From: Mesotaenium endlicherianum
Lineage: Eukaryota
Direction of reading: 5' to 3'
DNA length: 64,000 bases
Assembly (NCBI GenBank): GCA_009602735.1
Contig: WELA01003517.1
Span: forward strand, 513,950-577,949
Shown here: in pieces, positions 386 to 49,043 of the stretch
Position numbering within the stretch: the first letter of the stretch is position 1
How the letters are laid out: every line of letters begins with the position of its first letter
Position numbers and translations under genes: made by a program
Notes under the pieces: model-generated
What the model saw: only the letters and a program-made list of their open reading frames with translations
Told to the model about the DNA's origin: nothing
Databases searched by the model: none

Positions 386-1106
386 TGTAATGAATCAGTA
401 TATTGGTTGACATAATATTCATGTAAATAATATAATTAAATAAGTTCAGCCTGCTGAACTCTAGTTAATGATCAATCTGCTGGACTTTATATTTAATATC
501 AGTTTAATGACTCGGCCGGAAGCAACAGGCTGATGACAGCTTAAGTCAGCTTGCTGACACATTCTTTGACAGCCAGCTGACTTCCGTACTCGGTAGCAGC
601 GAACTGCCTCGATATGCATCTAAGTGTGGTATGCTAGATGAATGGCCAGATGACATCTCTATGATGGATGGCGATTCGGGATGATGGGAGTTGGCGGTGG
701 ATTTGGTTAACCGAGGTCCTACCAACGTGGTTAACTCCCGAGTAGGCGGTGCCATTGCACTGACCGTTGAACAGTAAACTCATTCCATGTACATATGCTA
801 AGTATTGCTCTCGAGTTCGGCATTCGGGAACGAGGCCAACTCTCTTGTACAGCCTACTGAGAGAGGTTTGAATCCGAGGCGAGAAGCCATTGATACGCAC
901 GGTCTTCTAACCTTGCTTATGTATGAGTTTCCTGATTTGCATTATTGATGCTAGTTTACTCGCATTTGACTTACGAGTATTATTCACTGGTAGTGTGTTG
1001 TCCTTTGCCGTTTAAACAGTTAACGGAAAATACCATCAAGATTACTTGTTGATATAAACATTTTTATTAATTGTTAATCGCCTATTTGGTAAGTCGATTC
1101 ATTTCA
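386..1106 (+). mobile_element. 3' LTR of a Ty3/Gypsy (chromovirus-type) element, family A
   Basis: Termini are TGTAATGAATC...GATTCATTTCA with an upstream PPT. It is a reverse-complement homolog of 11620-12339, 16760-17473 and 42068-42780, and is followed by ACTGC (expected TSD). Confidence 0.92.
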
Positions 1107-1616
1107 ACTGCGCCGTGCATCCAGCAATGCCGTTAGCTGAGCAGCCTGTGCCCTAGTGAGAGTCCCCCCCAGTTTCCAAGTAGGGACAGCTGATGGTGGC
1201 TCCTGCGCTGCGGCTGGCGCCTCCTGCCCTGCTGCTTGCGTGATCTGTGGGTCTGCAAGCGTCACCTGTCTTGCAACTGGCTGCACTCGGCCTGCCTCGG
1301 GTACCCTCTCCTTGGCAGCTGCTGCCATCTGCCCTGCACCACCTGTAGGCGGCGGAGAGCGTGGAAAAAGAAACGGGGAACAAAACTCCCTGTGTGAGGA
1401 CTCCTGTCTCCTCGTGCCCCCCCCCAGCAAACCAGAACGAGGACCATGACGAGGCGCAGGCGGCTGCTGGGAAGCTGGGCCCTCACGCTGGGAATGCCAT
1501 GTCGTACCAGGCGGGGCGCGGCCGTCGCCGTCGAAATCTCGATGCATGGCGTCAAAGGACTGGTTCATCTCAGGATGACGAGCCTGGGCGTAGAGGGGAG
1601 TCAGGGCCTGTGTCTG

Positions 1617-2566
1617 CAGGAGAAGCCACGTCAATACGTTTGCATCGATAGTCTGGCCAAGGAGACGCACGCAGTTGACCTCGGTGATGCCGTCCACCTG
1701 TGTGAGGTGCGGAGGGAAGCCCACGCACGCTCCATCTCCACGGCACGAGGTCGTTGGAACATGCCAGTCTTGAGGTTGATGATCATGCCGCGTTGGTCGC
1801 CCATGTAGGCCGCGCTGTCGTAGCGACTCACGAACGTAGGAAGCGCCCGCGTGACGTCGCGGAGGACCTTACACTGGGCCTGAGAAGGATGCGGAAGGGC
1901 GACCACGCGCTGGGCCAGGCGCGCCACGTCGAGGATGGAGTCAACGTTGCGCGTGTGGCGTCGGTGTGCGGCCGCTAATGCCTCAAGCGTGCCTGGCATG
2001 GCCACGTGGGTGAAGTAGGCGCGCACACGATGCGCGAGGGAACTAATCTGAGCTGCGTCAATGACGGCCTCACGACCGACGTAGCTGCTGCAGAGGGAAA
2101 AGTCGGCGCTGACGTTGGGCCGAGAATCGTGGCGGACAGCCACGTTCTCCGACACCCTGGCGAGCGTGTGCGGCGGCTGGCGGTCCTCAACCATGTTGAG
2201 GACGCGGAGTAGGTGCCAGAACAAGGCCGTACGCGGGTCACCAAGCCCGTTGCCCCGTCCCGCAATGGAGAAACACTGGCACTTTCAGCCAGCAATGATG
2301 AGGTCGATGGGCCCGAGGCGCGTGATGTGCTTGGCGGTAATGTCGCGGATGTCCATGGGCCAGTCAATCTGAGCGCGGTAGAAGGCATGCTCAGGGAAGA
2401 GGATTGGAAAACGCTCGTGGCATAAAGCCATCTGCCTGCGGGCGACCTGCTGCGCCTCGCCATCGGGGTCCACGTAGACGTACCAACGTACAGGGATGCC
2501 AGCCTGTAGGGTGGCCAACAACCCTGTCGCAATGCCAACGAAGAGCTCGACAAGGACAATGCCGCC
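1617..2566 (-). pseudogene. C5 cytosine-specific DNA methyltransferase domain embedded in the retrotransposon polyprotein
   Basis: Motifs occur in canonical order: I LVELFVGIATG; II YVYVD; III DIRDIT; IV IDLIIAG*KCQCFSIAG (TGA at 2285-2287 where W is expected); V DPRTALF; VI ENV; VIII AHRVRAYFT; IX EMERA/MGFP (1-nt frameshift near 1724); X RLLGQTIDANVL. Confidence 0.9.
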
Positions 2567-4636
2567 GGGACGCTCGTTGAGCTGTGCGATGTAGATAGGC
2601 GTAGGAAGGGGGCGACAACCCAGGGCGGGATCGCCGGCCTGCGCTGGCGGTGGATAGGAGCGCAGCAGACTGTGCTGATGGGGCGCCATGCGGAGGGCCG
2701 CCGCTGCGAGCTCTGCGTAGTGGCGAGTAAGTTGAGGAATGCGCTCGAGCAGCGGCTGCGGGCGAGCCGTGCAAGAATGTGCCTGATAAGTGCGCCAGCG
2801 CGCACGCGCGTCCTGCAAGGCCTCCTCGGGCACTGGGCGGGCCAGAGCCTGAGCGTCGCGCACGCGCTGCTGCTGCCACCGGTCCCTCGTCCTGTAGTCT
2901 GCGTGGTGTGAAGTGGCGTGGGTCAGCTGCTCTGTGGCGGTGCGCTGGGGCAGCTGGGAATGCTGATCAAAGTACGAACGCTGACGCTCGCGAAGATCCG
3001 CCTGAAGGGGCACTGTGCAGACGGAGCGCTCGTCCCAATGTGCTGCCTGTCGAGGACGGACGAGCTGACGTGGGGCGAGTTGGACTCGCGGGCGTAGCGG
3101 CAAAAGAGATGGGAGTCGGACGCGCTCCCGCTGGCTGCGCTGCATGGGCCCTGCGCGTGTTGCGTGCGGATGAGGATGACGGTCGCGGAGGCGCGCAGCG
3201 GTGCGGGCCACCTTATGAGGAGGTGACCCAGACGGCCCGTCGCCGGCTATGTGACTGCGCGGGACGTCGGCAGGCCAGCCAGGCGGCGTTTGGTATAATG
3301 CGTGAGCTCCAGTGGTGGAGGAAGACTAAGCGTCATGCTCTCGGGTGCGGAGATTGCGCGGACCGTCATACGGCGGTGTGACTAAGCGCGGGCGCGTCTC
3401 GCGCAAAGGAGTGACCTCTCTCCCCTCGCGAAGAGGAGTGACCTCTCGTGCGTCCTTGGGAGTGTCGCGCAGAGGCGTTCCTCACGGGCAGCCCTGGTAT
3501 GCTCGCGGATCGGAGTGACCTCGCGTGCACGCCGATCTAGGGGCAGAGTGCGGCGTGCGAAGCGTAGAGCTGGCCCGGCATAGGGGGAAGGACCTGTACG
3601 CCGAGGACCGAGGATGCTGATCATGGCCACTGTCTGGTGCGCACATCCGGCACGCGGGTCGATAGCGGAGAAAGGAACCGTGGAGGCAGTGCTGGCGGAG
3701 GCGCGACCTGGCCAGCCTGTGCTCAGGCTGTTGCCAGCGAACAAGTGCGTGACGTCACGGCACTCGTTGCTCGTCAAACAATCGTGCTGTATCGGACGAC
3801 TAGGCCTGCCGGCGCATGGATGGGCTCGACAGGGATTGGCCGTGGTCTCGTGTGAGAGAGAACTGAAGCCGAGAGGCCCTATAGGGTGGCGTTGAACGCG
3901 AGCTGTAGGCGTGGGCGGCGGTGGCTCTGCCCACGACTGGGCTGCGGGCTCCTCTGCGGCCTCCTGGGACCACTCCTGCCACTCCTCCTCCTCGCTGCTC
4001 AATGACGCGTCGTCGGACCTGCCTGGGAACGCAGCCTGCCTCATGGCCTCGTCCTCAGACGTGGTAGTGCGTGGCCATGAGTGGCCTGTCCTGTGCGACA
4101 GTGAGGGTGAGGGCAACTGTGAGGCCATGCGATATTGAAAGGCGACCCCCACAGGCACGTCATGCCGTACGCGGACGTGTGATCTCGAGGAGGGTTTGCT
4201 CGTCGCAAGAGGCAGTGGTTGAGGTATGGCTGCTGCGGCTGTGGCTGCGTCATGAGCGTGAGCTGCAGCAGTAAGAGCAGCCGTGGCAACGGCGTGTGCC
4301 TCTACGGCGTCTGCCGCCATCTGATGCACCATGGCGTTATGCGCGGCGTAGATCCGCACTGTCTCCCTAGCTTGTGCGGCCAGAGCGTCAGCCTGCTCCT
4401 GGGGCGTGAGGTGGAGCTCGGCACCAGACAGCTCGGGATCCTCCTCCTGCGTCTCCAGTAAGTCGGCGTCGACGGAGACCTCGTCATCCTTGGCTCCCCC
4501 CTTATTGGTCTGAACCACAGACCGACCGTCGTCCAGCGCCATGAAGCCGTAGAGGGCGGACTCAGCTGAGCGACGATCCAAGATGTCAAGTGGCACAGAT
4601 GCAGTGTGGGTCCCCCCCTGACTGCCAGTCAGATCG

Positions 4637-4995
4637 TTAGAAGACCCGCTCCACCCAGTTATCCACTGCGGCGCCGATAGGAAAGAGAATGACCTGGCCA
4701 AGGAGCACGTCGAAGGTCTCGGAGCGAGTGACCAACGCATGCCGGTGGATGGTCGTCTCATCCGGAGTGCCGGGCCAAAAGGTGAGGCGAAGGGCCAGCC
4801 GCGTGCGCCCGGTGACGGTCTCGGACGTGCCGGTAGCGGTGTTGATCCGCGTAGGCAAATCCTCTAGGTCGGCTGATGAGAGGCCCACCTGGCGAAAGTA
4901 GCGCAGGCTGATGAGGACTGGCTGGGCGCTAGTGTCAAACATGATGCGCTGCGGGGCCTGCGTGTTGACCAGCACGATGCCCTGCGAATTATCCA
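4637..4995 (-). pseudogene. Retropepsin-like aspartic protease of the DNMT-bearing element
   Basis: RIMFDTSAQPVLIS (D codon 4934-4936, a DTG-like motif), a flap-like INTATG, and a C-terminal FDVLLG motif. Confidence 0.75.
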
Positions 4996-5540
4996 AAAAC
5001 GCAGCGTTAGGCGTACTGATCCGTCTGCGCTCATGCGCAGGTCGCGCGGGTGCAGAGAGCACCGCGGCTGCCGCGTCTGACGTTGGCCTGCTGTCAGAGG
5101 CCTGCTGGCTGGCCCTGCGCGACTGAAGCAGTAGCTGGGTTGCCTGCCGTGTGGCTTCCATCGACACGCCGAGCTCCGCGAAGGAGACTGCGGGCATGCG
5201 GTGAAGCGCCAGCGAGATGACCTCGGCGCTGAGCTGCACCGTTGTCATCGGCGAGGCCATCGCGTGAGGCGCGAAGGCTGCTGGCGCTGCTGGCGTGTCC
5301 AGCACGCGGAACGAGCGGGGCAGACGCGGCGCGTCCTCCGTGCGATGCCCTTCATCCGGCTCGGCGCGCTTCTGTGCCACCGCTGGGCGTCCGGTTGCCA
5401 CCGAAGCGTGCTTGCGCCGTGCGCTGCCGTCTGCTGTGCGGCCTCCAAGTGGCACTGTGCGTGCGCAGCAGACCAGAATGGGGCCGCACGCGGCTGTAAC
5501 AGCAGGCGCAGCCGCTTGGACAGCCAGTACACGAGCGGAT

Positions 5541-5650
5541 GCACACCTGGCACTGGCGTACCTGGTGCTGGTGCTCCCAGCGCGGATGCACGTGGCGCTG
5601 GCGCACCTGGCGCTGGCGCGTTCGGCGCAGGCGCACCTGGCGCTAGCGTC
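5541..5650 (-). repeat. Degenerate 15-bp tandem repeat encoding (PGAPA)n
   Basis: Repeated gcacctggcgctggc-like units translate as APGAPAPNAPAPGAPAPRASALGAPAPGTPVPG. Confidence 0.75.
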
Positions 5651-6029
5651 GTGGGGGTAGCGAGAGCGAGTGCGGCCGCTCTTGAGCATGCCTGCGCAGT
5701 CGCCTGGCATGCTGACTCAGCCGTCGCTGCTGGCGCTGCCTCGGCAATCGGAAGGCCGCCAGGTGGCGCTGGCCCACCTGGTACTGGCACCGTGAGATGC
5801 GCTGGCTTGGGTCCTCCTGCAGCTGGCGCCTCGGCAAACGCTGGTGCCTCCGTTGGGGCGGCTGTGAATGCCAGCGCCGCTTTGGCCGCAGGCGCTTCGG
5901 CTACTGGCACTAACGCCGAGGCTGGCGCAAGCTTGGCTGCTGGCAGCCTGACAAGTGGCGCTTTGAGGGGCGCCCTCCAGGTAGCGCGTGCGCTCGCCGG
6001 GACCCTTGCTACGCTTATCGCGCAGTCCC

Positions 6030-6770
6030 AAGGGTTTTGTGCGCAGCCAGAGTTTAAGCCCTGGCTGTACGCAGCCGTGTGCGTGCTGTCGCAGCTCCGA
6101 ATGGAGATGCAACCGCACAGCGCGATCGGGAGATGTCGCTCCTTGACTCGGGATGACAGTCGCGGCCGCCAGATATGCGCTGGGTGGGTCGGACTTTGTG
6201 CGCGTGCCAAATGGCGGCATGTGTGCGCAGCTGCTGTACGCAGCAGCTGACGTGGCTGTCGTGAGGTGGTCACGTGGCTGGCTACTGAGTGAGCCTTGCA
6301 GTGCGGTGCGCGGCGTGTGCGGGCGTGTGCAGCCATACGCAGCTGTGTAGCTGACGTCAGGCAAAGTCTCGCCAGCTGCGCACGCGTCAGGTGCGGCGGC
6401 TGCTGGCGCGGCTGCCAGGACTCGCGCAGGTGTGTTCGCTGGGGGGCTGCCAAGTGGCGCCTCCCAATTGCTCCTGGGGTTGCGGGGGCTGGTGTCCGGT
6501 CCAACATCCAGGTCGATGTTGGCTGCCTCGGACGCCGCTCGCGACGCCCTCCCCCCGATGCGTGCGTACGTCGAAGCCCCCGTAGCGCAAATTGCGTCAG
6601 CGCGAGAGTTTTGTGCGCAGCCAGGGTTTAAGCCCTGGCTTTGCACAGCCGTGAGCGTGCCGTCGGCGCTCCGCATGGCAATTTGGCCGCACAGCGCAAT
6701 CAAGGATGTCCCCTCCTGACTGGGAATGGCGATCGCGGCCGTCGAATCTGCGCTGGCCGTGCCGGACTGC
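6030..6770 (-). repeat. Two diverged copies (~6030-6200 and ~6608-6770) of a ~55-codon module in the Gag-protease linker
   Basis: ttttgtgcgcagccag(a/g)gtttaagccctggct...ccgcacagcgc is present twice. The translations are IALCGQIAMRSADGTLTAVQSQGLNPGCAQN and IALCGCISIRSCDSTHTAAYSQGLNSGCAQN. Confidence 0.8.
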
Positions 6771-7486
6771 GTGCGCGCGCCACGTGGAAGGACGTGTGCA
6801 CCGCTGGCATGCGCAGCTGCTGCTGTGGCTGTCGAGTTGCAATCGTGTAGCTGGCTGCCCGGCAAGCCTCGCGTCGCCGTGTGAGGTGTGAGCAGACGCG
6901 TGAGAGCGCGAGTGTGCGCGTGGCTGCCGACAAGAGCGGCCTGGCCTGCCGGACACGCGGCAAGTGTCGGCGCCTGCTGGACCCTGCTGCTTGCAGCAGC
7001 CAACAGGGTGAGACCCTCCTGGTGTTGCCGGCTGGTGCACAGATCTACGCACGGAAGGGCAACGCGTACGGCAAGGGCCGCGGCAGCCGTGTGTGCTGCA
7101 GACGTGTCACTCAGCTGGCGAGCGCGCCCTGTCGCGACAGCTGTCGATACGCAGACTGCCGGCAGCACTGCTGGCGTCAGCAGGGCGGCGCAGACGAGAG
7201 GGGCTGCCGAAGCCTGCGGCTGTGCTGGCGTGGGTGCCGGACCGTCTAGGGGCGCGTCGGGAGCTGCAGCGTTTGTGACGCCGGGTAGCAGGACCGCATG
7301 AGCCTGCAGCCTGCCATCTATCAGCCCGACCGGACGAGTGCAGCGGCTGCTGACGGACATCAGCACAGAGTGCGCAGGTCTGGCAGAAGCGTCTGCACAG
7401 ACGCCTGCAGCGCTGGTCGCCGTAGCTCTGTCGTGGGGCGGGCGCGTGCGAGGCTGCAGCGCTGCTATAGCGCCAGGTGCCAGCCT

Positions 7487-8931
7487 CTAGGGCTGCCACG
7501 TATAGGCGTCATGAAAGTGCGCAGGAGCTGCAAAGACGCCAGCTGTCGGAGCTGAAGCGTTGGACTGCAGGACGCGTGCGAAGAGGGCTCCGCACGCGTC
7601 GTAACTGTCGGTGGCGACGAGACCGCGGAGTCTGGCGATGTCTGCGTTGGCCTCTACGAGGGCGTCACTGACGTCGTCGAAACTGTAGTAAACGGCTCCA
7701 GGGGTCAGCGCGGCGTCCATTGTAGCCGAGGCTGCCGTCATCGAGGGGCGTCCACCCGTGCAAGGGTTACGCCTGCCCCAAAGTCCTGCTGCTGGCGCAG
7801 GGCAGTCACGAGCACGTTTGTTCTCGACGTCGCGCTTCTTCTGCAGGCATACGATTTGCAAGTGGCCGGCCTTGCCACAGTAGGTGCAGTCACCGGGCTT
7901 GCCATTCTGCGCAATAGTGCAGTTCTGGCGAGCGTGGCCCGTCTTCCCGCAAGACCAACAGGGGTCGCTCGTCGTGGCGGCCATGGAAATGCGGCCACGC
8001 GGAGCCCCGCGCTGCTGGGTCTGCTGGGACAGCTGAGAGCGCTGGGGTTGCTGCTGCTGCTGGGGCTGGCGAGCCGGAGTCGGGCGCATCGTTGTGGATG
8101 GCAGCACCGAAGACTCCTGGCGTACGCCCGTGGATGCGAGGCCTACACGGTCGCTAATGTTGCTCCGTGCGGCGGCCAAGCTCTGCTTCTCGACTGAGAG
8201 GTAAGCGTCCTCCAGCGAGTACGCGGAGCCGATGTGGTAGATGAGAGGAGCCATGGCTGGCTCTCTCAAACGTGGCTCTACGGCGCGCAAGAAGATCTCC
8301 GCTGCCTCCCGGTCAGTGACGGTGCCAATGTCTCGGCGAAGGTGCGTCAAGCGGCGGTACATCATGCGGATTGTCTTGTTCTTGCGGCGGAAGAAGTGGT
8401 GCAGCTCGTACACCTTCTCTTTGGTCGCGGCCTGGAACTCCTTCCTGAGGACGTCCCAAAAGGCCTTGACCGGATCAGCGAGGAGGGTCTCCACTGGGGG
8501 TTCCCCCACAGGCTCTGTGCGTGCGTAGATTTCGTCGCCCTTCTCACGGAATGTGTCACGGGCCTCGTAGAGGAGATAGCGCATGAGCGTAAAGAACACG
8601 TCGCGCTTAGTAAGCGTGGGCGTCTTAAGCCACGCGGTCACGAACTCAGCCTCGAACTCTGAGATGGTGTCGTCCACATCACAGGTTCCTGGTCTGCCGC
8701 TGAAGCGGAAGAGGGAGGACCTGTCAGCCTTGACCTCGTGGTCACCTGCCATGGGATACCAGGAATCGTGGTGAGCCCGACGAGATTCGGCTCAGGGACA
8801 ATCACAGAAAGCACGAGTGCCAACTGCTCCCCTTCAGAGGGTTCAGTGACAATACTGAGATCGGAGTCTGAGTCTTCTCCACTAACCCCTTTGTAGTAAG
8901 GCTGGTAAGCACGCCCACTACGGGTAGGCAT
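7487..8931 (-). pseudogene. Retrotransposon Gag with two CCHC zinc knuckles
   Basis: CWSCGKTGHARQNC and CTYCGKAGHLQIVC follow a helical Gag-like region. The probable N-terminus MPTRSGRAY at 8931 is in a different frame (frameshift near 8760). Confidence 0.85.
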
Positions 8932-10514
8932 ACGCTGAAGATTCTAATTGCGTGCAGGCAAAGAGAGATCTTTTTAGAAGTAAGGAGTGTGTACTCTCCA
9001 GAGTGAGCACCTCAAGACTGTAATCTGGTAGGAAAACAACTAATGAAGTCTGGCCCAAAAGATCACTGGAAGCACATCATGATCTTCAAGAGTAGTCCTA
9101 TGGCAGGGGGTATGAGCTGTGACTTTGCTCACCGCTTGTGAAGTTCTTCTAGTGATTGGAAGCCAGAAAGGCTTGCTCTACACAAGAGAGGGACAAAGTG
9201 GTCCTGAAAACACAAGAGATAAAAGTGTAAGCTTTACTGATAATCTCTGTGACTTACAACTGGCATAATGGGACTTCTGAAAAGATGTTCCTCTAGGGAC
9301 ATCTCTAGCACTTATACTCCTGAAAACCCGGCGTCGTATGCGGCGGATCCAATGCATGTAGTCACTCTAGGAGGCTCTCCTATGTCCACTAATGTGTACA
9401 AGGCATGTACTAGCACTCCTGTAGGCTAAGCATAACTCAAACCAATCAAAGCAAAGCACGTAGAATATGCTGAGTGTCTCTCATTGGTGGAGCTTACCTT
9501 GGGTAGTTCTACCTAGATAGCGCCTCAAAAGTGACTCTGAAACTTGAAGAAGCTTCTTCTAGGAGTAGGTGATGCAGTCACCAAGTTATAGCCTCAATGA
9601 TGCACTTATATTGTAGAAACGCAAGACTTATGTAGTCTAAAGGGCTCGCGGATTTGTGCGCACAAAGCTAGGGGTCCTTGGGGTCACCAATAGTCAACAT
9701 TGTCACCTTGGGGTGCATTGAGTCACATGTTGGCCATTTGGTGTGATTCCGCTAGGTGTCGAAAGGAGTGCGGACTAGATCGCGTCTATCTCGCTCGATA
9801 ATTAACCAAATGACGCGAGACCGGTGCCATTCGGAAGATGCTTCGATGCGCTACACTTTGGTGACTTGGAGATCTAGAGAAGTTCAACATATGGATGCGT
9901 GAAGTCAATGCAAAGTTGGTCTTCCTAGGTTGATGGTTCACACACGTAGAACTTGGTTTTTTACGTCAACCTCGACTTAATACATCATGACATCTGTGTA
10001 AAATCATTGCAATCGTTATGTTCTTGTTTTTAGTGCTTTGATTTTTATTGCGTAGTGAAAGTACGCATAATGGTACTGAGGGTGGAGTCCGATAAATTCT
10101 GACGCGTATGTCAATCATTTTTGACTCCACACGAGTTGCTTTGGAGAAAGATCTGGAGGCGTTATGTTTGAAAGAATCTGAATCGACCTCTTTAGGTCCA
10201 CTCCAAAAAGTTCAATTGAGTTTCTTCCAATCTAATTTTGAAATGTACACTCCACAAACTGTGGAGGAAATTCCTAGAAGTCACTGTAAAATGACATTTT
10301 GATACACAAAATACATAAATTAAGTTTGGAATGGAAAATGAAAACTTTTTACTACAAGCTTGATTCACATTTGTCCCTTAAGAAATCGACACATAACAAA
10401 ACCCATAAACCCTAGCTCTTCATTGCACCGTAGGAAAGTAGTGAGCAAAATTCTAGCCTCCAGGTCTTACGCTTGACTGCATGCGTTTGATTTGCTTTGT
10501 TAGCACAATACGCG

Positions 10515-11010
10515 TGTAATGAATCAGTTCATTGTTTATTTAATTAATTGTATGTGCACATATATCATTCGCTAGATAGTAAGTCAATATACTCACATGT
10601 GCGAGTTCATCAAAATGAATATGTATCGATATAATGCGAGTTTACTTACTTTGTCGAAAAGGTCAGCAGGATGACTTTTATATCATTGTAGTTTGCTGAC
10701 TTCGTCAAAAAGGTCAGCAGGGTAACATTTTGTATCAAAGTATAGTTGGCTGAGATTATCTGTATATATAGGACATAATATATCAGTAGGTCCATGTGTA
10801 GTAAAGCTCGTATAATAATAGACAGTATACTTGGATTCAGTACGCTGAGGTTAGATATATACATTTAGATGATTATTTGTAAATTAGCACATGTGACCGT
10901 AGTGTACTGAAAGTTGGGAGGTCCACTGAGATTTGGTAAACCGATGTCCTACCAGTGTGGTCAACTCTTGGGTAGGCAGACCCGTCGTCAGTCAACTGAA
11001 CAGTTAGGAC
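10515..11010 (+). mobile_element. Fragment of a related LTR (family B); right end not located
   Basis: It starts TGTAATGAATCAG like family A. Bases 10916-11010 resemble 686-780 of the family A LTR, and there is an internal ~55-bp tandem duplication at ~10645-10755. Confidence 0.6.
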
Positions 11011-11619
11011 TTCAATCAACCGACCAATTAATATGGTCGTTATACCTAGATCCGTGGGTCCCAACTTAACGAATTTTCCCACGAAACGGCGCACCTTGCG
11101 CCGTGGTCAACCAGGTGATCACTAGATACATAGCAGGCTGGGATCTTGTGGTCCCTCATTCTGGACATTAGGCTTTAGAGTTGATTTTCTACTTGCAAGT
11201 CAAGTGTGCACTTTTGGGTTCGATATTATGACCAGCTTTCACGAAAATTGGCATGGCTTCTTTGTCTGTGCTCCAAATGGAGCAAACTAGGCCTTTGTGA
11301 AAAGGTCTCCTCATGTTGCGTCCGTTGACGTTAACTTTGTTGAATTTGGAGTCGTATTGACAGAGTTATGCCCTCTGACATCTCAGAGTCACATAGCAAA
11401 CGGATTCCATAATTTTGCATCTAAGTCAGAGGGATGTGTTTTAGTTACAATATGGTCATCTGAATGAGAGCGCCTTTGCTATTCAGTCCTCTGATGTTGT
11501 GTAAGTACTTATACATGCTTGTATGCGTGGTAGACAAGAGGCCATGAGTTTCAAAAGGAGAAGCTGTAGTCCTCAAGTTTGCCTCTTTGCATGGGTAGGT
11601 GGTCTTTGGACAAGGCTAA

Positions 11620-12339
11620 TGAAATGAATCGACTTACCAAATAGACAACTAACAATCAATAAGGATCTTTATGTCAGCAAGTAATCTTTATGGTATTTTT
11701 TGTTAATTGTTTTAACAGCAAAGGACAACACACTAGCAGTGAATAATACTCGTAAGTCAAATGCAAGTATACTAGCATCAATAATGCAATCAGTAAACTT
11801 ATACATAAGCAAGGTTGGAAGACAGTGCGTATCAATGGCTTCTCGCCTTGGATTCAGATCTCTCTCAGTAAGCTGTACAAGAGAGTTGGCCTCGTTTCCA
11901 AATGCCGAACTTGAGAGCAATGCCTAGCATATGTACATGGAATGAGTTTACTGTTCAACGGCCAGTGCGATGGCACCGCCTACCCCGGGAGTTAACCACG
12001 TTGGAAGGACCTCAATTAACCAAATCCACCGCCATCTCCCATCATCCCAAATCGCCATCCATCATAGGGATGTCATCTGGCCATTCATCTAGCACACCAC
12101 ACTTAGATGCATATCGAGGCAGTTCGCTGCTACCGAGTATGGAAGTCAGCTGGCTGTCAAAGAATGTGTCAGCAAGCTGACTTGAGTTGTCTTCAGCCTG
12201 CTGCATCCGGCTGAGTCCTAAAACTGATAATCATATAAAGTCCAGCAGACTCAACACTACATAAAGTTCAGCAGGTTGAACTTAATTAACTGTTATATTC
12301 AAATGAACATTATATCTACCAATATATCGATTCATTACA
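11620..12339 (-). repeat. 3' LTR (family A)
   Basis: TG...CA termini, adjacent PPT, and roughly 90-95% identity by eye to 16760-17473. Confidence 0.93.
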
Positions 12340-12451
12340 ATCCCTCCAACTTAACTTGTTGTCGCCTCGACAACATTAAACTGCAGAAGTTTCTGGTCAG
12401 GGAACTGAACCTCACCAGCCTTCCCCACTGACTGCCTCTTCAGCCTGTCAC

Positions 12452-14131
12452 CTAGGGGGTTGTTCCCGGGGCTTCAGGATCAGGATACTGAGATCTGGAC
12501 CTAGATCTGGATTGCCCTCTAGGTCTGTCAGCTGGCCTTTTAAAAAACCCCGTTTGTTCTAAAGTTGGACCTCGAGGAGAACAAAGGATGGTAGCCTGCT
12601 TTTCAACCACTTGGGTGTTGATCCCCACATAGACAGGCATTCTAGTAGGATGCTGAAAAACATTGGCAAGAGGTACATGCCCCTGAGCGAAGGGAGAGGC
12701 CGACATACCTCTGGCCACCCCGCGTGTCCCTCTTCTAGCACCCCTGTCTTCTGGGGATTTCTGCCTTTGTCTGCTGCCAAGTACAGTCAGATCAGCTTCT
12801 TCCCTTGCTTGGGCAGGTGGGCTTGGGGAGCGAGTGCGCGGTTCGGTTGTCTCCATGGCCGGGGTCAAATGCCATATTCCTGATCTTGGCTCCTGAGGAA
12901 GCCATGCTCTTGCCTGCCCCTGGGTGTCCTATGTACCAGCTCCTGATGCTTCTCCTCTGCCTTATTCTTCTTCCTCATCCTCCTCATCTTCCTCCTCTGA
13001 GAGGGTAAGAGTCTCGTCCACTAAGACGTCCTGCTCCCTGGTAGACATGGAGTAGTCTACTGACCTCCCTTTCTTAGGACGCGCCGGAGGTTGATTGGCC
13101 TTCAGCCTGCTGATATCTATCCGGCCTGCATTCTTCGCCTATTTCACGAAAGCATGCTTTCCCTTAGAGAAGTAGTCTCTCCCCCTCCTCCTGTCCTCTT
13201 TGGTCTCCGCATTCATATTGCTCAGGCAGCCATTGAGCCTGGGGTCCCAAGGGGCAATGTGAGGTGGTAGGATGAGATAGCCGTCCAGGCCATAGTGGAA
13301 GTCATCCGGTTGGGCTCGGTCACACTCCTGCTTCTTGTTTGTGACGGTCATCCACCTCCAGTCCGTTGGCTGCTGGTAGTACTGGGGTCCATGTTCAGCC
13401 TTCCTCAGTTTACACGGGAACCAGTGGGGAGAGAACATCTGCTGTCCTGCTTCCCCGGCCATCTACTCCCAGCTCCTTCTCTCAACTTCATTGTAAGCTG
13501 GCAGTAGTGTGAGTTAGAATACCGTATCCTTGAAGCTATCGGGCCGCATGCTCACCATCCTGATGAGTCTCTGATCTCCCACTATTCCCGGTATTGGGAC
13601 GGGCTTGTTCTCTGAATCATCGGCAAGGTATCGGGCCTGCTCTGCTGTATAGTCCACCATTTTGGCATAATCCTCGTAGAGGACCACACCAGTGTGTGTC
13701 TCAATGTACCTATCCAGTGCTGCAGTTCCTTCCCTCTGTAGCAGTGTTGTCTGTTCCAGCTTCTTGATGTCCTGGGCTGCCAGCAATGCTTCCTTCAGGT
13801 TATGAAAGTTTTGGCCACCCACCACAGTATACCTGTAAGTGGCCAAGCTCTTCTGCCTGTCCGCTTCAGCCTTTTTCCTTCTCTCCTCCTCTGCCACCGC
13901 CGCTTCTTCTTGTTGTTTCTTCTGTCTCTCCTCCTCAGCTTTCCTGAGGTTTTCCGCTTCCTGATCCTTCTTCCTCTGTGCTTCTTCTGCCGCCTCTCGT
14001 CGTTTGCGAACCCTTTCTTGTTCTCTCCTGGTGAGGGACGTTGCCGCCAGCTTCTTCTGGTATTGCTCTATTGTCCTCCTGGCTTCTTCCGCCTTGCGCT
14101 TCCTGTCCTCCTTTCGTGTGGTGGGAGCCAT
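12452..14131 (-). pseudogene. Accessory 560-codon ORF between pol and the 3' LTR (unknown function, charged coiled-coil-like N-terminus)
   Basis: ORF-track pieces 13514-14182, 13139-13462 and 12452-12868 are all in one frame. From ATG 14131 to the stop at 12452 it is broken only by 5 in-frame TAA/TAG stops. A homolog lies at 1-300. Confidence 0.75.
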
Positions 14132-14535
14132 TCTGCACATGTAACCAGGGCACAAGTCAGTAGGATATCGACCTTTGTCCAAGAAGTTGGAGGATGGGAG
14201 TAAGTTCGTATTAGTATGGTGTATTTGTTCCTGTTTACCTTACAGGGTGCTTGCTAGGAGTTGACGTAGGTGCGGTGCGCTAGACATAAACATGTGAATG
14301 CGTTTACAGGTGTGTTAAGTGATGTATGGCTGTGCGAGGCCCTTTTTTCTTCCGCTAAAGGTGCTTTATGTGGGCTAGGCTGTCCCCTCTGTCACTATGC
14401 TGACACTTAGGGTTCGCATAACTGTCCTTAACTGTCCCTTTCTCGCTCTCGCACACTTACTGTCATATATTTTCCCCTCCAACTTAAATGGAGACAGGAC
14501 CTCCTGTCACCTGCCCGTGTCAACTCAAATGACTG

Positions 14536-15615
14536 TTAGAGAGGTGCTCCGGCCACCCGAAGGTGGAATTGTTTCAACGCCCCTTTGGCATTAGTCAAAT
14601 GATCTTTAAATTCCCAAGTGTCCCGAGAGGCATCGTAACCCTTCCATCGAATGAGGTACTTCATGACATATTTAGACGATCGACGGACCGAGCGCGCGTC
14701 TAAAATCTCCTCAACCTCATATTCCTCAAGATCACCGTCCCGGACAGCGGGGACCGGTCCCGGTTGGACAGGTAACCGACCTGTGAACAGTGTGTCACCT
14801 TTGATGTATGGTTCTAGGAAGGAGACATTAAAGACCGGATGACCTTTGTATTCAGCTGACATGTTCAGTTTGTAAGCATTCTGATCGACACGGCGCACCA
14901 CCGAATTTGGACCAACCCAGACAGGACTAAGCTTTTTCTTGACCACACCACGGAGGTACAGGTGCTGAGAATGTAGTTTGAACAAATCGCCCTTAGAAAA
15001 GGTCAGTTCTCGACGGTGCTGATTAGCGTACTTTTGTTGGTTTTCTTGGGCTCTGTGCAGATTTTGTTGGACTTCTGACAGGGTGTCAGCAAACTCGTGA
15101 GTTGACTGGAGGGAGTCCGGATTGTCAATCCCTTCAGGGTGAGTTAAAGACTCCCCGAGGACATCTGAAGGAGAATTAGGGACTCTACCCAGGCTCAGTT
15201 TAAAAGGAGTCTTGCGTTGACACGTGCACCGCACTGTTGACCGCAAACTGGATTTGAGGTAACAGGTCATACCAATTATCTTATTTTTGGTTAATATAGG
15301 CTCTCAGTACCTCTTGCAGAACCCGGTTAGTTCTTTAAGTCTGCCCATCAGTCTGAGGGTGGTTTGCTGTGCTTAGCAGCTGTTTGACTCCCATTAACCC
15401 CATTAAAGCTCTCCAGAACTTAGAGGTAAATTTCGAGTCTCTGTCTGCGATTATATTAGAGGGTAGCCCATGTTGGCATACTACATGGTTATAGAACTGT
15501 CTCGCTGTTTTGAGTGCAGTTACTTTGACAATTGTGGGGATAAAAATGACCATTTTGTCAGTTTATCCACGACTACCAATATTGAACTATGCCCATTGGC
15601 AGTTCGTGGCAGTGT
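14536..15615 (-). pseudogene. Integrase core, C-terminus and chromodomain (frameshifted)
   Basis: LVVVDKLTK, HGLPSNIIADRDSKFTSKFW, STANHPQTDGQT, KLSPVWVGP, HPVFNVSFLEPY, and the chromodomain EYEVEEILD...YLIRWKGYDASRDTWE. Confidence 0.92.
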
Positions 15616-16471
15616 GACCAACCCGGGGAAGGATCTAACTTCAGAAACAGACCGTAGTACTGGCCAGTCCCTTATGGTCTGGACTTTCTTAGGATCCACA
15701 CTGATGCCTTCTTTATTGACAACGTGGTCTAAAAATTCAATACTTTCCTTAAAGAAATCACACTTGCTCATTGTAGCATATAAATGATTTCTTCTCAGAA
15801 TGTCCATGACTGTCTTTAAGTGTTGAGCGTGCTGAGCTTCATCTTTGAAGAAATTGAATATCATCCAGGAAAACTTGCACAAACTTATCCAAATAAGGTC
15901 TGAAAATGTCGTTCATAGCACCCATGAAGGTTGTAGGAGCACCAGTCAGTCCAAATGGCATCACGTTAAATTCATAGTATCTATAACGTGTGCGGAAGGC
16001 AGTCTTGTGTTCATCTCCCTCAGCAATTCTGACTTGATGATAACCACTCTTGAGATCTATCTTACTGAACACTTTAGCACTAGACAAGGTATCAAGCAAG
16101 TCCTCGATTCTGGGTAAAGCACACTTGTTCTTTATTGTAATTATGTTCAGAGCTCTGTAATCCACACACATCCGCTTACTGCCATCCTTTTTCTTAACAA
16201 ACAGGATGGGTGCGCCGTAAGGTGATTTACTGGAGGAAATATAACCATTTTCCTCAAGCTCTGCAATCTGTGTTTTCAACTCCTCGCTCTCCACATAAGA
16301 CAAGCCATAAGTGCGTTGCCAAGGTGGCTGACTCCCAGGTAATAAATCAATCCTATGATCTACTTCCCTCTTAGGGGGTAGTCCTAGAGGCATATTAAAT
16401 ACATCCGTGTACTGAGCAACATTTTTGGCAGCAGTAGGGTGCGCCGGAGGGCTTACCTTTTTCTCCACCAC
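15616..16471 (-). pseudogene. Ty3/Gypsy reverse transcriptase (frameshifted; RNase H missing)
   Basis: [63 protein letters not shown], then VDPKKVQTIRDWP...EVRSF. Confidence 0.95.
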
Positions 16472-16746
16472 TTCTTTAGGTTAAGGAGGTACCTCTCTTA
16501 GCAGCAGACAGAACATTCCGTCTTCCTTCTGGTTCCAGCTTGTTGTGCTGCGACTGCGGTACTAGCAGCTGCCTCATTTGCAGCCTCTCTAGCTGCAGTA
16601 TCTGCTACTGCTTCAGAATAGGTACGGGTTCCCGCTACATGGCTTTCAGCCTGATTTTTTACATTCTCGTCATCCTGGTTCTCCATGTCTCGGGAGTTGC
16701 TAGTTTGAGACCTTTTCCTTACCATACAAAGAAGACTGTGATAACT

Positions 16747-16758
16747 GCTTCGATACCA
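16747..16758 (-). other. Primer binding site (initiator tRNA-Met type)
   Basis: TGGTATCGAAGC lies one base inside the 5' LTR and resembles the common plant iMet PBS TGGTATCAGAGC. Confidence 0.8.
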
Positions 16759-16759
16759 C

Positions 16760-17473
16760 TGAAATGAATCGACTTACCAAATAGGCGATCAACAATTAAT
16801 AAAGATCTTTATCAGCAAGTAATCTTTATGGTATTTTCTATTAATTGAATTAACAGCAAAGGACCATACACTAGCAGTGAATGATACTCGTAAGTCAAAT
16901 GCAAGTAAACTAGCATCAATAATGCAATCAGTAAACTCATACATAAGCAAGGTTGGAAGACAGTGCGTATGAATGGCTTCTCGCCTTGGATTCAGATCTC
17001 TCTCAGTAAGCTGTACAAGAGAGTTGGCCACGTTTCCGAATGCCGAACTCGAGAGCAATGCCTAGCATATGTACATGGAATGAGTTTACTGTTCAACGGC
17101 CAGTGCCATGGCACCGCCTACCCGGGAGTTAACCACGTTGGTAGGACCTCGGTTAACCAAATCCACCGCTATCTCCCATCATCCCAAATCGCCATCCATC
17201 ATAGGGATGTCATTTGGCCATTCATCTAGCATACCACACTTCGATGCATATCGAGGCAATTCGCTGCTACCGAGTACGGAAGTCAGCTGGCTGTCAAAGA
17301 ATGTGTCAGCAAGCTGACTTGTTGTCTTCAGCCTGCTGCTTCCGGCTGAGTCCTTAAACTGATATTTATATAAAATCTAGCAGACTCAATACTACATAAA
17401 GTTCAGCAGGCTGAACTAGATTAACTATTATATTCAAAGGAATATTATATCTACCAATAACTGATTCATTACA
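16760..17473 (-). repeat. 5' LTR (family A)
   Basis: TG...CA termini, adjacent PBS, flanked by TSD GCTAA. Confidence 0.93.
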
Positions 17474-20247: not shown

Positions 20248-23200
20248 ATGGAGGTTCAAGAAATATTAAACGACCAACTTACAACCCTCTGGCAAATATA
20301 CGAAGCAAGCCAGGCCTCTCAACAGCACCTTGACAGCTGCTTGGCCTTCAGCGACTGCGTCAAATTATTCCATATATTCTTAGAGGTATACCCACATTGA
20401 ATGTGGAAAAGAATGGGGCCTTTCCCTAGTAGCCTTGCGTTTGAAGCAAGTATAATGGGAAACCAAAAGAAACCAACCAGCTTTTTATTCGTTCAATCAC
20501 AAACTGTGCTGATATGATCCGGTCAATACCTCCGAAGTCGGCCTTCAGTGAGTTGGCCTTGAGTAAGCTGGGTCAGGGTGGGCAAACGTGTGTTTTGCTC
20601 CTTTTCCTCACTTGGTCTTTAATTGTCAACGCCTGTACAGTGTTTGCTGGATAGAGCTAAACAAGGAAGTTTGGAGCACCACGAGGGAACTCTAAGCCTT
20701 CTTGTTTCATGTCGGAGGTGAGACACGATATGCAAATAACACCTGCATCATAATTCATGTCCGCCAGAATGCATATGTGTAATAATCACATGTTTCGTGC
20801 CCTTCATATGTGCCCTGAGGTAGTAAGCACTCTTCTTATTTGGGCATATTGTGGCTGATGCAGATACTTGAGGCAAGCCCTTCAGTTCTTAAAAGGGTGC
20901 AGGAAAGCGCGATGCATTGCAATGGCTAATTCCCACATAGAACCTCTTGTTGGACTAGAAAAGGTAAGCCCTTTCTGGAGTTCCTTCCCTTTATGGACTA
21001 GGGCCCCTCCGCTCCTTACTTGCTCGAGGTAATGTCCTGTTCCCCTAAGTGACCAATCTTTCTTTGCCAGATGCAGACTCCAAGGTCTATAAGTTATAGC
21101 TTCCTGGTGTCTGCTAGCCACTCTGTCTTGATTTCAGAGTAATTATTGGCTGCCTCATATTGATTGCTCTTGTCAAACCTGTCATCATTCTGTGCAGGTA
21201 GCCCAGAATATGGTCACAAGTATTTCAGGTTTTCCTGCGGTTGTCACTGACCTTCCCAATGAAACATGGGCCAGCCTCACTGCTGTTCAGAGTCATCTAC
21301 AAGTCTTGAAGCTGGGAAAGCCTAAGAGCAATACAAATCTTTCAACAACTCTCCTTCAGTGTCTCCAGGAGCAAGAGCAGCTCCTTGGGCAGCAGAGGGG
21401 AATCACTGCTAGAATTCAGCGTACTGTCTTGTGGTCAGGTGAAGAAAGTTCCCAAGCAAGTCATGCAATCCTCGCCGAGCAGTTGAAAGTTTTGGCCGCA
21501 CAGGAAGAGGCTCAAAGTTTTCTGATAGCAACCTGCCGGATGCTGATCGAGTGCTCTTGTTGGCTGGAGAAGAAGATGGCTAACCAACTACTTAAAGAGA
21601 TCAAATCGTCAGCCGCAGAACTGCTGGAACACAAGTCTGTGCTCAACACTTGGGAGAAGCGCTTCGAATCTGGAGAACACAGCCCAGACGAAATCATTAG
21701 CAATAGCAAACCTGCTGCTCGGTCTGACTGTGCACTTGTGCCACTGAAGACCAGCATAGAAGAAGTGCATGCTGTCAGGAACAGTCTCGAGCGTAGTAGT
21801 CAAATGCTGGTGTACTATACCTCTTGCTTCTACAAGGACCTTGAGACAGACATCCGGAACATCCTGACGGCATGGAAGCAGACCCTGCAGGTGAGCTCCT
21901 TTGCCATAATTTGCAACTCCAACTCTTCCTGCGTATTGGAAAGTCGCATGGCTGAACTCGTTAAACATCTGCAAGTGTTACTTGTAAATGCTGCCCAGCA
22001 TAGATACCACCGCGGGGCGGATGCCACTATGTTTGACTGGGAATGAATGTCCCCCTATGCCAGAAGGAATGGTCAACAATTAGCTCCAGCTGCGTCACAT
22101 CATGTTTGGGTATTGAATCCACGTGTTCATAACAAATTCGGATGCTGTACTAGACATTGAGAAACCACTCTATGTTTGACAGCCCCTGTGCGGCCCTATG
22201 CTCTGTTATGCAAGAGCAGGTTGGGCATGGGGACAAGCTCGGGCAGGAGGGAATGCATATGTAGTTCAAAGTGTAGTACGAAAAGGTCAGACGTATGGCA
22301 TGTTCGTTGAACCTGAGCTTTGGTTGTTGGTGACATGGCTACTTGCTAATAGCATGTCTGTATTTTCCAATGCAGGAGAATCTGGGCCTCGAAGCCTTAT
22401 CCCTGGACTTCTACGACAGCAATTCAGCCCTGAGTATCGTACACAACTTTGATGCGGCTACAAGGCAATGCCATACTTCTGTGCTTCTCCTCGAGTGTTT
22501 AGCTTTGCTCTTGGAGACTGCACCCCTGTCTCTGACTGCAGGTGCTTTCAAGGGGAGGGTTATCAAGGACCAGCTGCTCAACTGTCAGCAGCTCTGGAGG
22601 AAGCAGGTGGGGCCTGCTGATGGTTTTACGAGAAGCTTTCAACAAGTAGGAGTAGCAGAGTGCTTTCAGCACAATAAATGGATAAATACATTTCTTTTAC
22701 CTGTCTGAAGCACTCGTCTTTTGTATTTCAGGACCCTCTGTTGCAGTCACTCCGGGACATATTTGAAAGTAAGTCGACGCCAATAAGTGAAGCTCTTGCT
22801 GGAAGTGTGCTGGATTCTCTGCACGGGTTCCAGCAGAGTCTTAAGAAGCACAGAGAAGCGGTCAAGAAAGTCCTACCACTGCTGCAAGTGTGCGTCGAAG
22901 GAGAAGCTGGAGGGGCGCAGCAGCATGGGCCACTCACTGACGTCCCAGTGAACAACATGCCAGACAATTTCTCAGGTAGGTAGACTCCGCAACTGGCTGC
23001 TCCGGATTGTAACTGGTACTGATATGGATGAAGGCGTGCTGAGATGCTCCAAAATGCTATCAGCCCAATGGTCTCCAGGAAAATGAAATAGACTGGTTCC
23101 TCATATAAGAAGAACAGATGTGTCGTCCTTTGCTGCTGTTATGATCAAACAGCTACGAGGGCACAGGTCATGCGTCTTGTAATGTATGCGCACCATATTT

Positions 23201-35900: not shown

Positions 35901-36077
35901 ATATGTCCCTGTCCACGGTGCGTGTCTTAGGAAGGAGGAGGAGGAGCAGCAGCAGCAGCAGCAGCGTCACGGGCTCACTTGTGCTCCTCCACAACTCAAA
36001 AGATGAATGACCCACCTTTTTGCTGAGGGTTCTTATCTGTACTATTTTTGAGATCTTCTCCTCAACGAAGTGGACAA

Positions 36078-41968: not shown

Positions 41969-42780
41969 ACATTCTCATTATCCTGGTTCTCCATGTCTCG
42001 GGAGTTGCTAGTTTGAGACCTTGTCCTTACCATACAAAGAAGACTGTGATAACTGCTCCGATACCACTGAAATGAATCGACTTACCAAATAGGCAATTAA
42101 CAATTAATAAAGATTTTTATATCAGCAAGTAATCTTTATGGTATTTTCCATTAACTGGTTAAACGATAAAGGACAACACACTAGCAGGGAACAATACTCG
42201 TAATTCAAATGCGAGTAAACTAGCATCGATAATGCAATCAGTAAACTCATACATAAGCAAGGTTAGAAGACAGTGCGTATCAGTGGCTTCTCGCCTTGGA
42301 TTCAGATCTCTCCCAGTAAGCTGTACAAGAGAGTTGGCCTCGTTTCCGAATGCCGAACTCGAGAGCAATGCCTAGCATATGTACATGGAATGAGTTTACT
42401 GTTCAACGGCCAATGCGATGGCACCGCCTACCCGGGAGTTAACCACGTTGGTAGGACCTCGGTTAACCAAATCCACCGCCATCTCCCATCATCCCGAATC
42501 GCCATCCATCATAGGGATGTCATCTGGCCATTCATCTAGCATATCACACTTAGATGCAAATCGAGGCAGTTTGCTGCTACCGAGTACGGAAGTCAGCTAG
42601 CTGTCAAAGAAGCAAGCTGACTTAAGTTGACTTCAGCCTGCCGCTTCCGGCTGAGTCATTAAACTGATATTAAATATGAAGTCCAGTAGACTGAATAACA
42701 ACTAGAATTCAGTAGGCTGAACTTTAATAACTATTATATTGAAATGAATATTATATCTACTAATATACTGATTCATTACA
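41969..42780 (-). mobile_element. Truncated family A copy: 5' LTR (42068-42780), PBS and ~100 bp of leader
   Basis: The LTR is homologous to the other three. PBS TGGTATCGGAGC is at 42055-42066, and 41969-42067 matches 16661-16759. Confidence 0.9.
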
Positions 42781-48073: not shown

Positions 48074-49043
48074 CGCAAACTCAAACTTATGTCTCCTTTA
48101 CCTCCTTCCTAAAAGGTAAAAACAAAGAATTTGAATGACAGAGAGCATGCCAGATACCTGAAAATATTAGATACTTTCTTCTATTAACAAGGCTTTTATG
48201 ACTTTTACTCTTCAGACATGATTCGATAGCTATGCAGCCACTGCTGATTGGCAGTCGTTGTTAACAGTCACTCGACGCTTCTATCACTTGCATGCAAGTG
48301 CAGGTGCAGGTAAAATATGCGTGTACACACCAAACATCTTCGAGACGTATATGATCCAGTCCAGTTCTCTACATGCAGCTTCAATATCTGACTTTGATTT
48401 ACTTTTTTACGTCTGGCAACATTAAGCAATTGGGCTTCGAAGATGTTCACTCGTGAAGTCTGTATGTAGTATTTGTACTAGTACAGGTTTCCCATCGTCC
48501 CCCGACGAGGACAGGTTGCGGGACAGACGCGTACGTCCTAGGCTCTTGTACGCTGCTTTTTGCTTCTTTGCTCCAGTGACGCCAGTGTGACGCAATGTCA
48601 TGTAATACATCTGATCCTATGTGCCGCATGGGCCACCATGCCGTAAGGTGTGCACCGTGCCAAACGCAACCAATGCATACACCACCTGACACACAATTTA
48701 ATGTGCAAATGCAGGGTCTGCATTGGTCTGGACTCTGCATCCCTGTGTGGGGGTCTATTAGCCCCAAGTCCGACATTCCAGCGCGTTCTCGGCTTCAAGC
48801 TCAATGGTGTGGAATGGGACTCCATAGTAGTCAAAAGGAAAACCGAGAGTTAGATTGACCTCATGTTCGCGAAATCACCCCGGCACAAGTACACTGCACA
48901 TGAAGCTTTGAAAGGTAAGAAGAAGCTAGTCCGAGATATCCTGACGGCGCTGAGAACCCGTACGACACTTGGTCTCTATCCAACTGAAAGTATTCCTGCC
49001 ACATTGCCTACAGCGTAGAGAAGTTCCGACAAGGATTGCAAAG

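Follow-up and report, generated by a model that had tools for sequence, protein, structure and literature searches.

A decayed retrotransposon of Mesotaenium endlicherianum, most likely of the Gypsy-Dnmt3 kind, with a DNMT3-type cytosine methyltransferase domain

A 64,000-nucleotide stretch of the Mesotaenium endlicherianum assembly GCA_009602735.1 (contig WELA01003517.1, positions 513,950 to 577,949; the window, to which all coordinates below refer) contains on its minus strand a retrotransposon with a C5 cytosine DNA methyltransferase (DNMT) domain in its polyprotein. The element is a dead copy of a multi-copy family, of which the DNMT is a regular trait rather than a single capture, and it most likely belongs to the Gypsy-Dnmt3 kind. 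The kind itself is known; the window adds to it a divergent branch, in another host, with long linkers and a Glu-Cys (E-C) pair at the catalytic site.

As the preliminary description of this DNA had proposed, positions 8931 to 1107 read as a single decayed polyprotein with Gag, protease, methyltransferase and the helix that precedes reverse transcriptase (RT). The frame path covers 2,603 codons with four stops (7489, 4639, 3328 and 2287), whereas the two alternative frames contain 47 and 69. It is broken six times, near 8784, 6127, ~5400, 4612, 3479 and 1723; five of these six changes coincide with one-base insertions or deletions (indels) in a comparison with DNA contigs of other copies, and the position near 5400 is one that we infer. 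Gag (7490..8931) opens with a start codon at 8931 (MPTRSG), changes frame near 8784, beside indels seen at 8779-8786 in other copies, and runs to the stop at 7489; it contains two CCHC zinc knuckles (7960-7919 and 7888-7847). A long Ala/Pro-rich linker (4976..7486, with the breaks near 6127 and ~5400) separates it from an aspartic protease (4640..4975; DTS at 4939-4925), which is followed by the in-frame stop at 4639. Pfam scores for these domains are under the curated cut-offs (Gag, E-value 0.02; knuckle, 0.03; protease, PF13975, 4.2e-5). The earlier assignment of a two-knuckle Gag and a protease is borne out by relatives: in a search restricted to DNMT-bearing proteins, the window Gag matches their Gag with E-values down to 4e-26, and the window protease matches their proteases with E-values down to 2e-25 and 33-40% identity.

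Beyond the protease lie a second linker of ~690 codons (2567..4636, with the breaks near 4612 and 3479, the stop at 3328 and continuous contig depth), the DNMT (1617..2566) and a final segment (1107..1616) that is in frame with motif X of the DNMT. The frame from motif X onward is open, and its last 23 codons (1178-1110) align in register with the pre-RT helix of the related proteins P0005, P0281 and P0041. At 1107 an unrelated chromovirus in reverse orientation truncates the element and displaces RT, ribonuclease H (RH) and integrase (IN), which are therefore not in the window. The proposed location of the DNMT between protease and RT thus holds for the Gag-protease-DNMT order, whereas on the RT side the window offers the pre-RT helix only. 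Relatives with matching Gag, protease and DNMT (P0041, P0281 and the loci L048 and L075) continue with RT-RH-IN and a DDE integrase; taken with the Gag, protease and pre-RT helix of the window, these domain assignments make a Ty3/Gypsy-type element the most likely identity. A DIRS or tyrosine-recombinase element was considered and rejected: the window has a protease, and the Pfam matches of the relatives include an rve integrase but no recombinase family.

The DNMT is split, as had been noticed from the reading frames, by a TGA (2287-2285) and a one-base break near 1723. With the TGA read as X, positions 1724-2566 (minus strand) match PF00145 with an E-value of 4.6e-10 and 39.9 bits, above the cut-off of 22, and the best PDB matches of the domain are DNMT3C, DNMT3A and DNMT3B (E-value 5e-10). 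The motifs follow one another without permutation: motif I at 2548, the Cys codon of motif IV at 2281, ENV of motif VI at 2149, AHRVR of motif VIII at 2035, motif IX at 1738 and motif X at 1664, the last beyond the frame break and matching that of relatives. A profile of 62 sequences (the window domain and 61 relatives) matches DNMT3A (E-value 1e-29), DRM-type enzymes (2e-14 to 4e-10) and HhaI (2e-11); DNMT1 is not among its matches at an E-value of 0.001. An AlphaFold model that extends up to motif IX has a pLDDT of 93, and the top Foldseek rows are all DNMT3. The VIA fold comparison gives Z scores of 19.3 for DNMT3B (root-mean-square deviation 2.7 over 229 residues), 16.7 for M.MpeI, 15.0 for HhaI and 11.2 for DNMT1. 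By profile, predicted fold and unpermuted motif order, the domain classifies as a methyltransferase of the DNMT3 type.

Residues expected at the active site are strongly conserved. Among 139 relatives, the catalytic Cys is present in 138, the motif VI Glu in all 139 and each Arg of the motif VIII pair in 137, while the motif I Gly, which belongs to the binding site for S-adenosylmethionine, is found in 126 of 126. The window copy retains 51 of the 73 columns that are conserved in at least 75% of these relatives, including the catalytic Cys, the ENV Glu and the RxR pair. Its motif IV, however, reads Lys-Cys (K-C), which the preliminary description had taken as an oddity of the enzyme. Other copies differ from the window at bases 2285 and 2284 and read G-W-E-C-Q. 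In DNA contigs that share one species label, the differing bases account for 98-99% of summed depth in two runs (X1 and X4) and for all of it in a third (X2); they also make up the whole depth in contigs of two other organisms (X5 and X7). Other copies are also open at both breaks of the DNMT, the stop at 2287-2285 and the frame break near 1723. Motif IV could be picked in 143 of 156 related proteins (two picks hit wrong sites), with E-C in 82, Pro-Cys (P-C) in 47 and K-C in none. K-C is therefore rejected as a family trait: it is decay of the window copy, and the family form is E-C, the commonest among relatives. The GQ of motif X, also remarked on as unusual, falls within the range of the family (GN, GR, GL and GQ).

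Sequencing depth places the DNMT in the family as a whole, as the preliminary description had supposed. Summed contig depth is continuous across the element, and in all three deep DNA runs the DNMT is covered at least as deeply as the linker and protease beside it. In run X2 the DNMT bins sum to 6,000-10,500, compared with 63 for the unique flank contig (spanning 9952-10546); such sums are not copy numbers and support "many copies" only. Many copies also cover the Gag-protease linker, with deletions, and the protease-DNMT linker is likewise present in other copies. The same domain order is kept by relatives that are only 30-40% alike, and their Gag and protease resemble those of the window.

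Relatives were collected with HMMER, which returned 1,293 cluster representatives at an E-value of 0.001; an earlier word-seeded search of 7,997 candidates, of low sensitivity, had found no longer relatives. Two domain orders emerged from the 156 proteins examined. In order A (16 proteins) the DNMT follows Gag and protease or precedes RT, and in order B (83 proteins) it lies between RH and IN, mostly with a PHD finger at the C-terminus; a further 56 are DNMT-only fragments and one lacks the DNMT, so that 99 carry other retroelement domains beside it. Nearly all of 80 metagenome loci (55 of order A and 25 of order B, the latter including by default a short DNMT-only locus) carry other retroelement domains as well, and long order-A loci read Gag-PR-DNMT-RT-RH-IN-PHD (PR, protease). 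Order A is represented in Closterium, Klebsormidium nitens (GAQ93235.1, P0056), Mesostigma viride, Calypogeia fissa and Marchantia polymorpha, whose Mp8g17980 (P0311) encodes 1,248 residues of Gag-PR-DNMT with the motif GWPCQ; a partial Sphagnum magellanicum model of this order matches a quarter of the query at 93% identity. The Marchantia models P0311, P0314 and P0318 are all Gag-PR-DNMT frames, one of them named DNA methyltransferase by UniRef. Named members of order B are Chromochloris (genus taken from the gene id), Hariotina and Monoraphidium, all of them chlorophytes. Order-B elements such as P0006, P0014, P0104 and P0313 and the loci L076, L091, L106 and L108 read RT-RH-DNMT-IN-PHD, some with a G-patch and many uninterrupted. 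E-C and P-C forms are present in both orders.

Trees were built quickly and without bootstrap, with domains shorter than 200 residues dropped for the DNMT (139 of 156 kept) and only two outgroup sequences for RT; row P0046 of the second DNMT tree was cut wrongly and is disregarded. In the DNMT trees order B falls on one side of a well-supported branch (95-97), and the window domain lies among order A with no supported sister. Fifty-five retroelement-type rows separate from 12 phage enzymes (Shimodaira-Hasegawa-like approximate likelihood ratio test, SH-aLRT, 100). Viral contigs yielded 45 loci with weak matches (E-value 1e-9 or worse, mostly motifs I-IV), and no close viral donor was seen among them. 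In the RT tree, 32 of 33 DNMT-linked RTs from both orders stand apart from the two chromovirus-like outgroup RTs (SH-aLRT 94), and order B falls on one side of a weak branch (66). This topology fits one lineage whose DNMT has moved, without proving so.

The 5' terminal repeat of the window element (8981..9992, minus strand, ~1,010 bp), an A repeat or a long terminal repeat (LTR), has limits that follow from DNA depth and from the loose ends that three RNA runs show at 8981 and 9992. Its first seven bases, TGTCATG, are those of repeat A of relatives, and the sequence just past its 3' end is similar to theirs; beyond the ends no alignable likeness to their repeats was found. The repeat starts with TG, and its end is not CA. 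No TGG or similar primer-binding site follows it in the window or in five of five relatives, and no tRNA gene was found in the window. A canonical LTR retrotransposon was rejected on the lack of the CA end and of a primer-binding-like site at the 5' repeat (the 3' end is outside the window). The name "LTR retrotransposon" in the preliminary description is right about the retrotransposon, and its "LTR" calls for a qualification, since relatives have split repeats of the form A...B-A-B. Among 21 loci with enough 3' sequence, 16 have a direct repeat B...B of at least 120 bases after the PHD finger, and in five loci the two B repeats enclose a copy of A, the 5' repeat, giving A-coding-B-A-B. The ends of these elements are TGTCATG and CACGACA-like; a 4-base target duplication, read by eye, is exact in two of five, matches at three of four bases in two and is absent in one.

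Judging from these comparisons, the window's family probably has split repeats too. At 8981, RNA reads of three runs pass from the window repeat into a sequence that all three have in common; it is absent from the rest of the window and may represent B or, alternatively, one transcribed locus. In a split-repeat arrangement the terminal A-B would amount to a full LTR with TG...CA ends, and the junction of the internal B with A would make tRNA priming unnecessary by supplying the ends. Locus L048 (14295-14948) shows such an internal junction: the two terminal motifs of the element meet there across a spacer of two bases, much as in a circle junction, and the ends may be templated from it during reverse transcription. 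DNA depth over the window repeat is 67-138k, compared with 0.5-23k inside the element, and almost all RNA reads of the element in the three runs fall on it; solo or non-autonomous derivatives of the repeat are likely.

The linkers are Ala/Pro/Arg-rich and, as had been remarked, very long. The ~690 codons between protease and DNMT compare with a maximum of 302 residues in 75 order-A relatives and a median of 109 over all 77 rows in which the protease precedes the DNMT. The Gag-protease linker contains a duplication (6031-6415 and 6605-6990, 71% alike). Neither a Pfam family in the four linker frames nor a usable Atlas match for 2567-3325 was found, which does not show their absence.

The closest described system is KnitGypsy-Dnmt3 of Klebsormidium nitens, from the 2018 report of de Mendoza et al. 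(PMC5890265), to which the preliminary description had already pointed. According to that report, its polyprotein has Gypsy domains together with a DNMT that is Dnmt3-related, unpermuted and free of introns; the element is under purifying selection, has silent copies and bears DIRS-like repeats, which agree with the A...B-A-B of the relatives described here. The K. nitens protein P0056, presumably a copy of this element, is among the matches of the window (E-value 1.8e-27) and has the same order, Gag-knuckle-PR-DNMT. The window DNMT is, however, only ~31% identical to it, the motif IV of the family is GWEC and not GFPC, the linkers are several times longer, and the window DNMT runs in frame toward RT whereas P0056-like proteins stop just past the DNMT; the 3' repeats of the window element are outside the view. 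The dinoflagellate SymbioDIRS-Dnmt3 shares a Dnmt3-type domain in Pol, an A-coding-B-A-B structure, an absence of CG depletion and, in yeast, CG methylation (PMC5890265). It is a tyrosine-recombinase element, whereas protease, RH, a DDE integrase and target duplications of 4 bp characterize the relatives described here.

Host DNMT3 enzymes (human DNMT3A/B and bryophyte DNMT3) share the catalytic fold and motif order; the window domain is catalytic only, ~25% identical to them and located inside a retroelement polyprotein. MpDNMT3b of Marchantia (Mp5g09290; bioRxiv 10.1101/2021.02.12.428880) is a different gene from Mp8g17980. EpiLTRs of Cymbomonas and Euglena, which combine DAM, DNMT and a chromodomain, are also Gypsy-like elements with a cytosine methyltransferase, but their DNMT is sister to DNMT4 and accompanied by the DAM domain, and the 2026 preprint treats the acquisition as distinct from the "Gypsy-DNMT3" of streptophytes, as it names the kind considered here (bioRxiv 10.64898/2026.05.21.726589). 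The suggestion that the element may be undescribed thus survives for the window's family and fails for the kind. Published literature on bryophyte or chlorophyte members, the E-C motif, order B or Mp8g17980 was not found, while published figures and supplements may show more species or domain order; the main text of Neumann et al. 2019 (PMC6317226), as far as available, contains none of the words "methyltransferase", "methylase" and "PHD".

What does the enzyme do for the element? On balance, and going by domain order and conservation, we favor a model in which the DNMT enters the particles of working copies and methylates the cDNA newly made there, ahead of its integration. A domain behind the protease in the polyprotein would be packaged and released where cDNA is made: the protease would free the DNMT inside the particle, the enzyme would methylate double-stranded cDNA de novo, and the new insertion would arrive pre-marked like host heterochromatin, which would shield or silence the element. 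Methylation of cDNA is favored because the catalytic residues are conserved and because related DIRS-borne domains, those of SymbioDIRS-Dnmt3, methylate CG de novo in yeast (PMC5890265). Purifying selection on the DNMT, of a strength like that on RT, is on the same side. It was measured in relatives: in moss-like copies (55 loci) the catalytic Cys is kept in 50 of 50, and the median pairwise ratio of nonsynonymous to synonymous substitutions is 0.37-0.39 for DNMT (50 of 55 loci) and 0.37-0.46 for RT (29 of 55). Protease (36 loci) has 0.24-0.49 and integrase (21 loci) 0.23-0.56.

Several subfamilies end their protein soon after the DNMT. A stop between DNMT and RT lies in the context TAG-CAG-TTA at L075:5083, where pol follows in frame, and at L071:2081, and several related proteins of ~1,330 residues end at the matching place. 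We take this context to resemble that of plant-virus read-through. A leaky stop after the DNMT would, in such subfamilies, put many copies of the enzyme into each particle; the window and L048 have no stop between the DNMT and the RT site.

Several points weigh against pre-integration methylation by the window's family. The substitution ratios stem from non-independent pairs of partly decayed copies and not from the window's family. The window DNMT is a long branch with no supported sister, and the residue before its catalytic Cys is, in the family, Glu and not Pro. Within the portions of three RNA runs that were covered (6, 13 and 24%), the stretch 1451-3205 drew no reads, and RT, integrase and the 3' repeats of the family are beyond the cut at 1107. 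To our knowledge, no Gypsy-borne DNMT has yet been demonstrated to be active. KnitGypsy-Dnmt3 gave no methylation in yeast, which its authors deem inconclusive (PMC5890265).

Base composition is a further point on this side. The coding part of the element has 65% GC and an observed/expected CpG ratio of 0.97 (1.08 in the DNMT), compared with 0.49-0.69 elsewhere in the window (chromovirus interior 0.49, host open reading frame 0.50), and in moss-like elements CpG is higher inside than in the flanks at four of four loci. CpG depletion as a sign of self-methylation was thus found neither in the window element nor at these four loci, and the CpG data give no support for CG self-methylation. SymbioDIRS-Dnmt3, for comparison, methylates CG yet shows no CG depletion (PMC5890265). 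Among 39 listed differences between the window and other copies, which were preselected and are too few to name a methylation context, 23 are losses of the C-to-T type in the window copy (9 CG, 4 CHG and 10 CHH).

The same observations can be read as signs that the DNMT has been kept as a DNA- or chromatin-binding module, or as a weak enzyme that aids cDNA handling or integration, with selection not acting on methyl transfer. Such a role would fit the E-C form, which replaces P-C in 82 of 143 motif picks, as well as the inactivity of KnitGypsy-Dnmt3 in yeast (PMC5890265) and the undepleted CpG content of the element. We nevertheless consider this unlikely: the catalytic Cys, the ENV Glu and RxR are near-invariant across relatives 30-40% alike, the motif I Gly is invariant, and both P-C and E-C forms persist in both orders, a pattern of conservation expected of catalysis. 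Nor is it probable, in our view, that the enzyme accompanies the integration machinery and, guided by the C-terminal PHD finger known from relatives, methylates host DNA at or near new insertions, or further copies in trans, in place of the cDNA in the particle. Full relatives of both orders do end in a PHD finger, and in order B the DNMT directly precedes integrase; in the window's order, however, it comes before RT and ends the Gag-side frame in several subfamilies, which fits a particle enzyme better. Capture of a host DNMT cDNA by a single copy of a family normally without it, which linkers resembling entry points for foreign DNA and an RT outside the window might suggest, is scarcely credible in view of the depth over the DNMT, the order and the Gag and protease matches shared with DNMT-bearing relatives, and the frame that stays open from motif X into the pre-RT helix.

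Packaging of the DNMT and methylation of cDNA can be set in a wider picture, which we offer tentatively and at less than even confidence. Sequence comparisons would allow one old green-lineage Gypsy-Dnmt3 lineage, extending from chlorophytes through Mesostigma, Klebsormidium and Closterium to Sphagnum, Calypogeia and Marchantia, with tRNA-free split-repeat replication, a DDE integrase, a DNMT3 that has moved between two positions (before RT and between RH and IN), and particles loaded with an active E-C or P-C enzyme that pre-methylates cDNA. The window would then represent a CpG-rich branch with giant linkers, and Marchantia Mp8g17980 would make the function testable in a genetic model.

Why retrotransposons should carry a silencing enzyme has been a question since 2018, and the dead copy in the window adds one family to it. 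The relatives matter more: they show that selection comparable to that on RT has maintained the DNMT for very long, at two places in the polyprotein, and that the domain is present in land plants. The uninterrupted Gag-PR-DNMT frame of Marchantia is found in a plant for which methylomes, mutants and transformation are available. The relatives further suggest an element that combines an integrase with split repeats while lacking a recognizable primer site, which leaves its mode of replication to be explained. Surveys of plant DNMT3 genes may count retroelement domains as host genes.

The window also contains other repeats and two further open reading frames. The unrelated chromovirus that truncates it is represented by a 3' LTR at 386..1106 (plus strand), recognized by its ~90% identity to the LTRs at 11620-12379, 16760-17473 and 42068-42780 and by a purine tract just before 386. 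Its family is of the chromovirus-type Gypsy kind, with RT, chromodomain, ordinary LTRs, a primer-binding site and a purine tract, and the copy at 11620-17473 (minus strand) is flanked by GCTAA as target duplication. A high-copy, weakly transcribed repeat (10928-11600) lies between this copy and the DNMT element. A long single-exon open reading frame at 48954-50114 (plus strand) belongs to a conserved uncharacterized plant family without a Pfam match and is at most 53% identical to named proteins; in a midpoint-rooted tree that includes no named moss or hornwort, it groups (97/93) with a sequence whose gene id begins with SM, outside liverworts, ferns and seed plants. We take the SM prefix to stand for Spirogloea, and the position in this one gene tree points to a streptophyte alga as the probable host. 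A second open reading frame, of 304 codons, at 21132-22046 (plus strand) is coiled-coil-like and has no Pfam match, and a GC-rich repeat of 69 bases is dispersed over 36074-41562 in four copies that are 62-78% alike.

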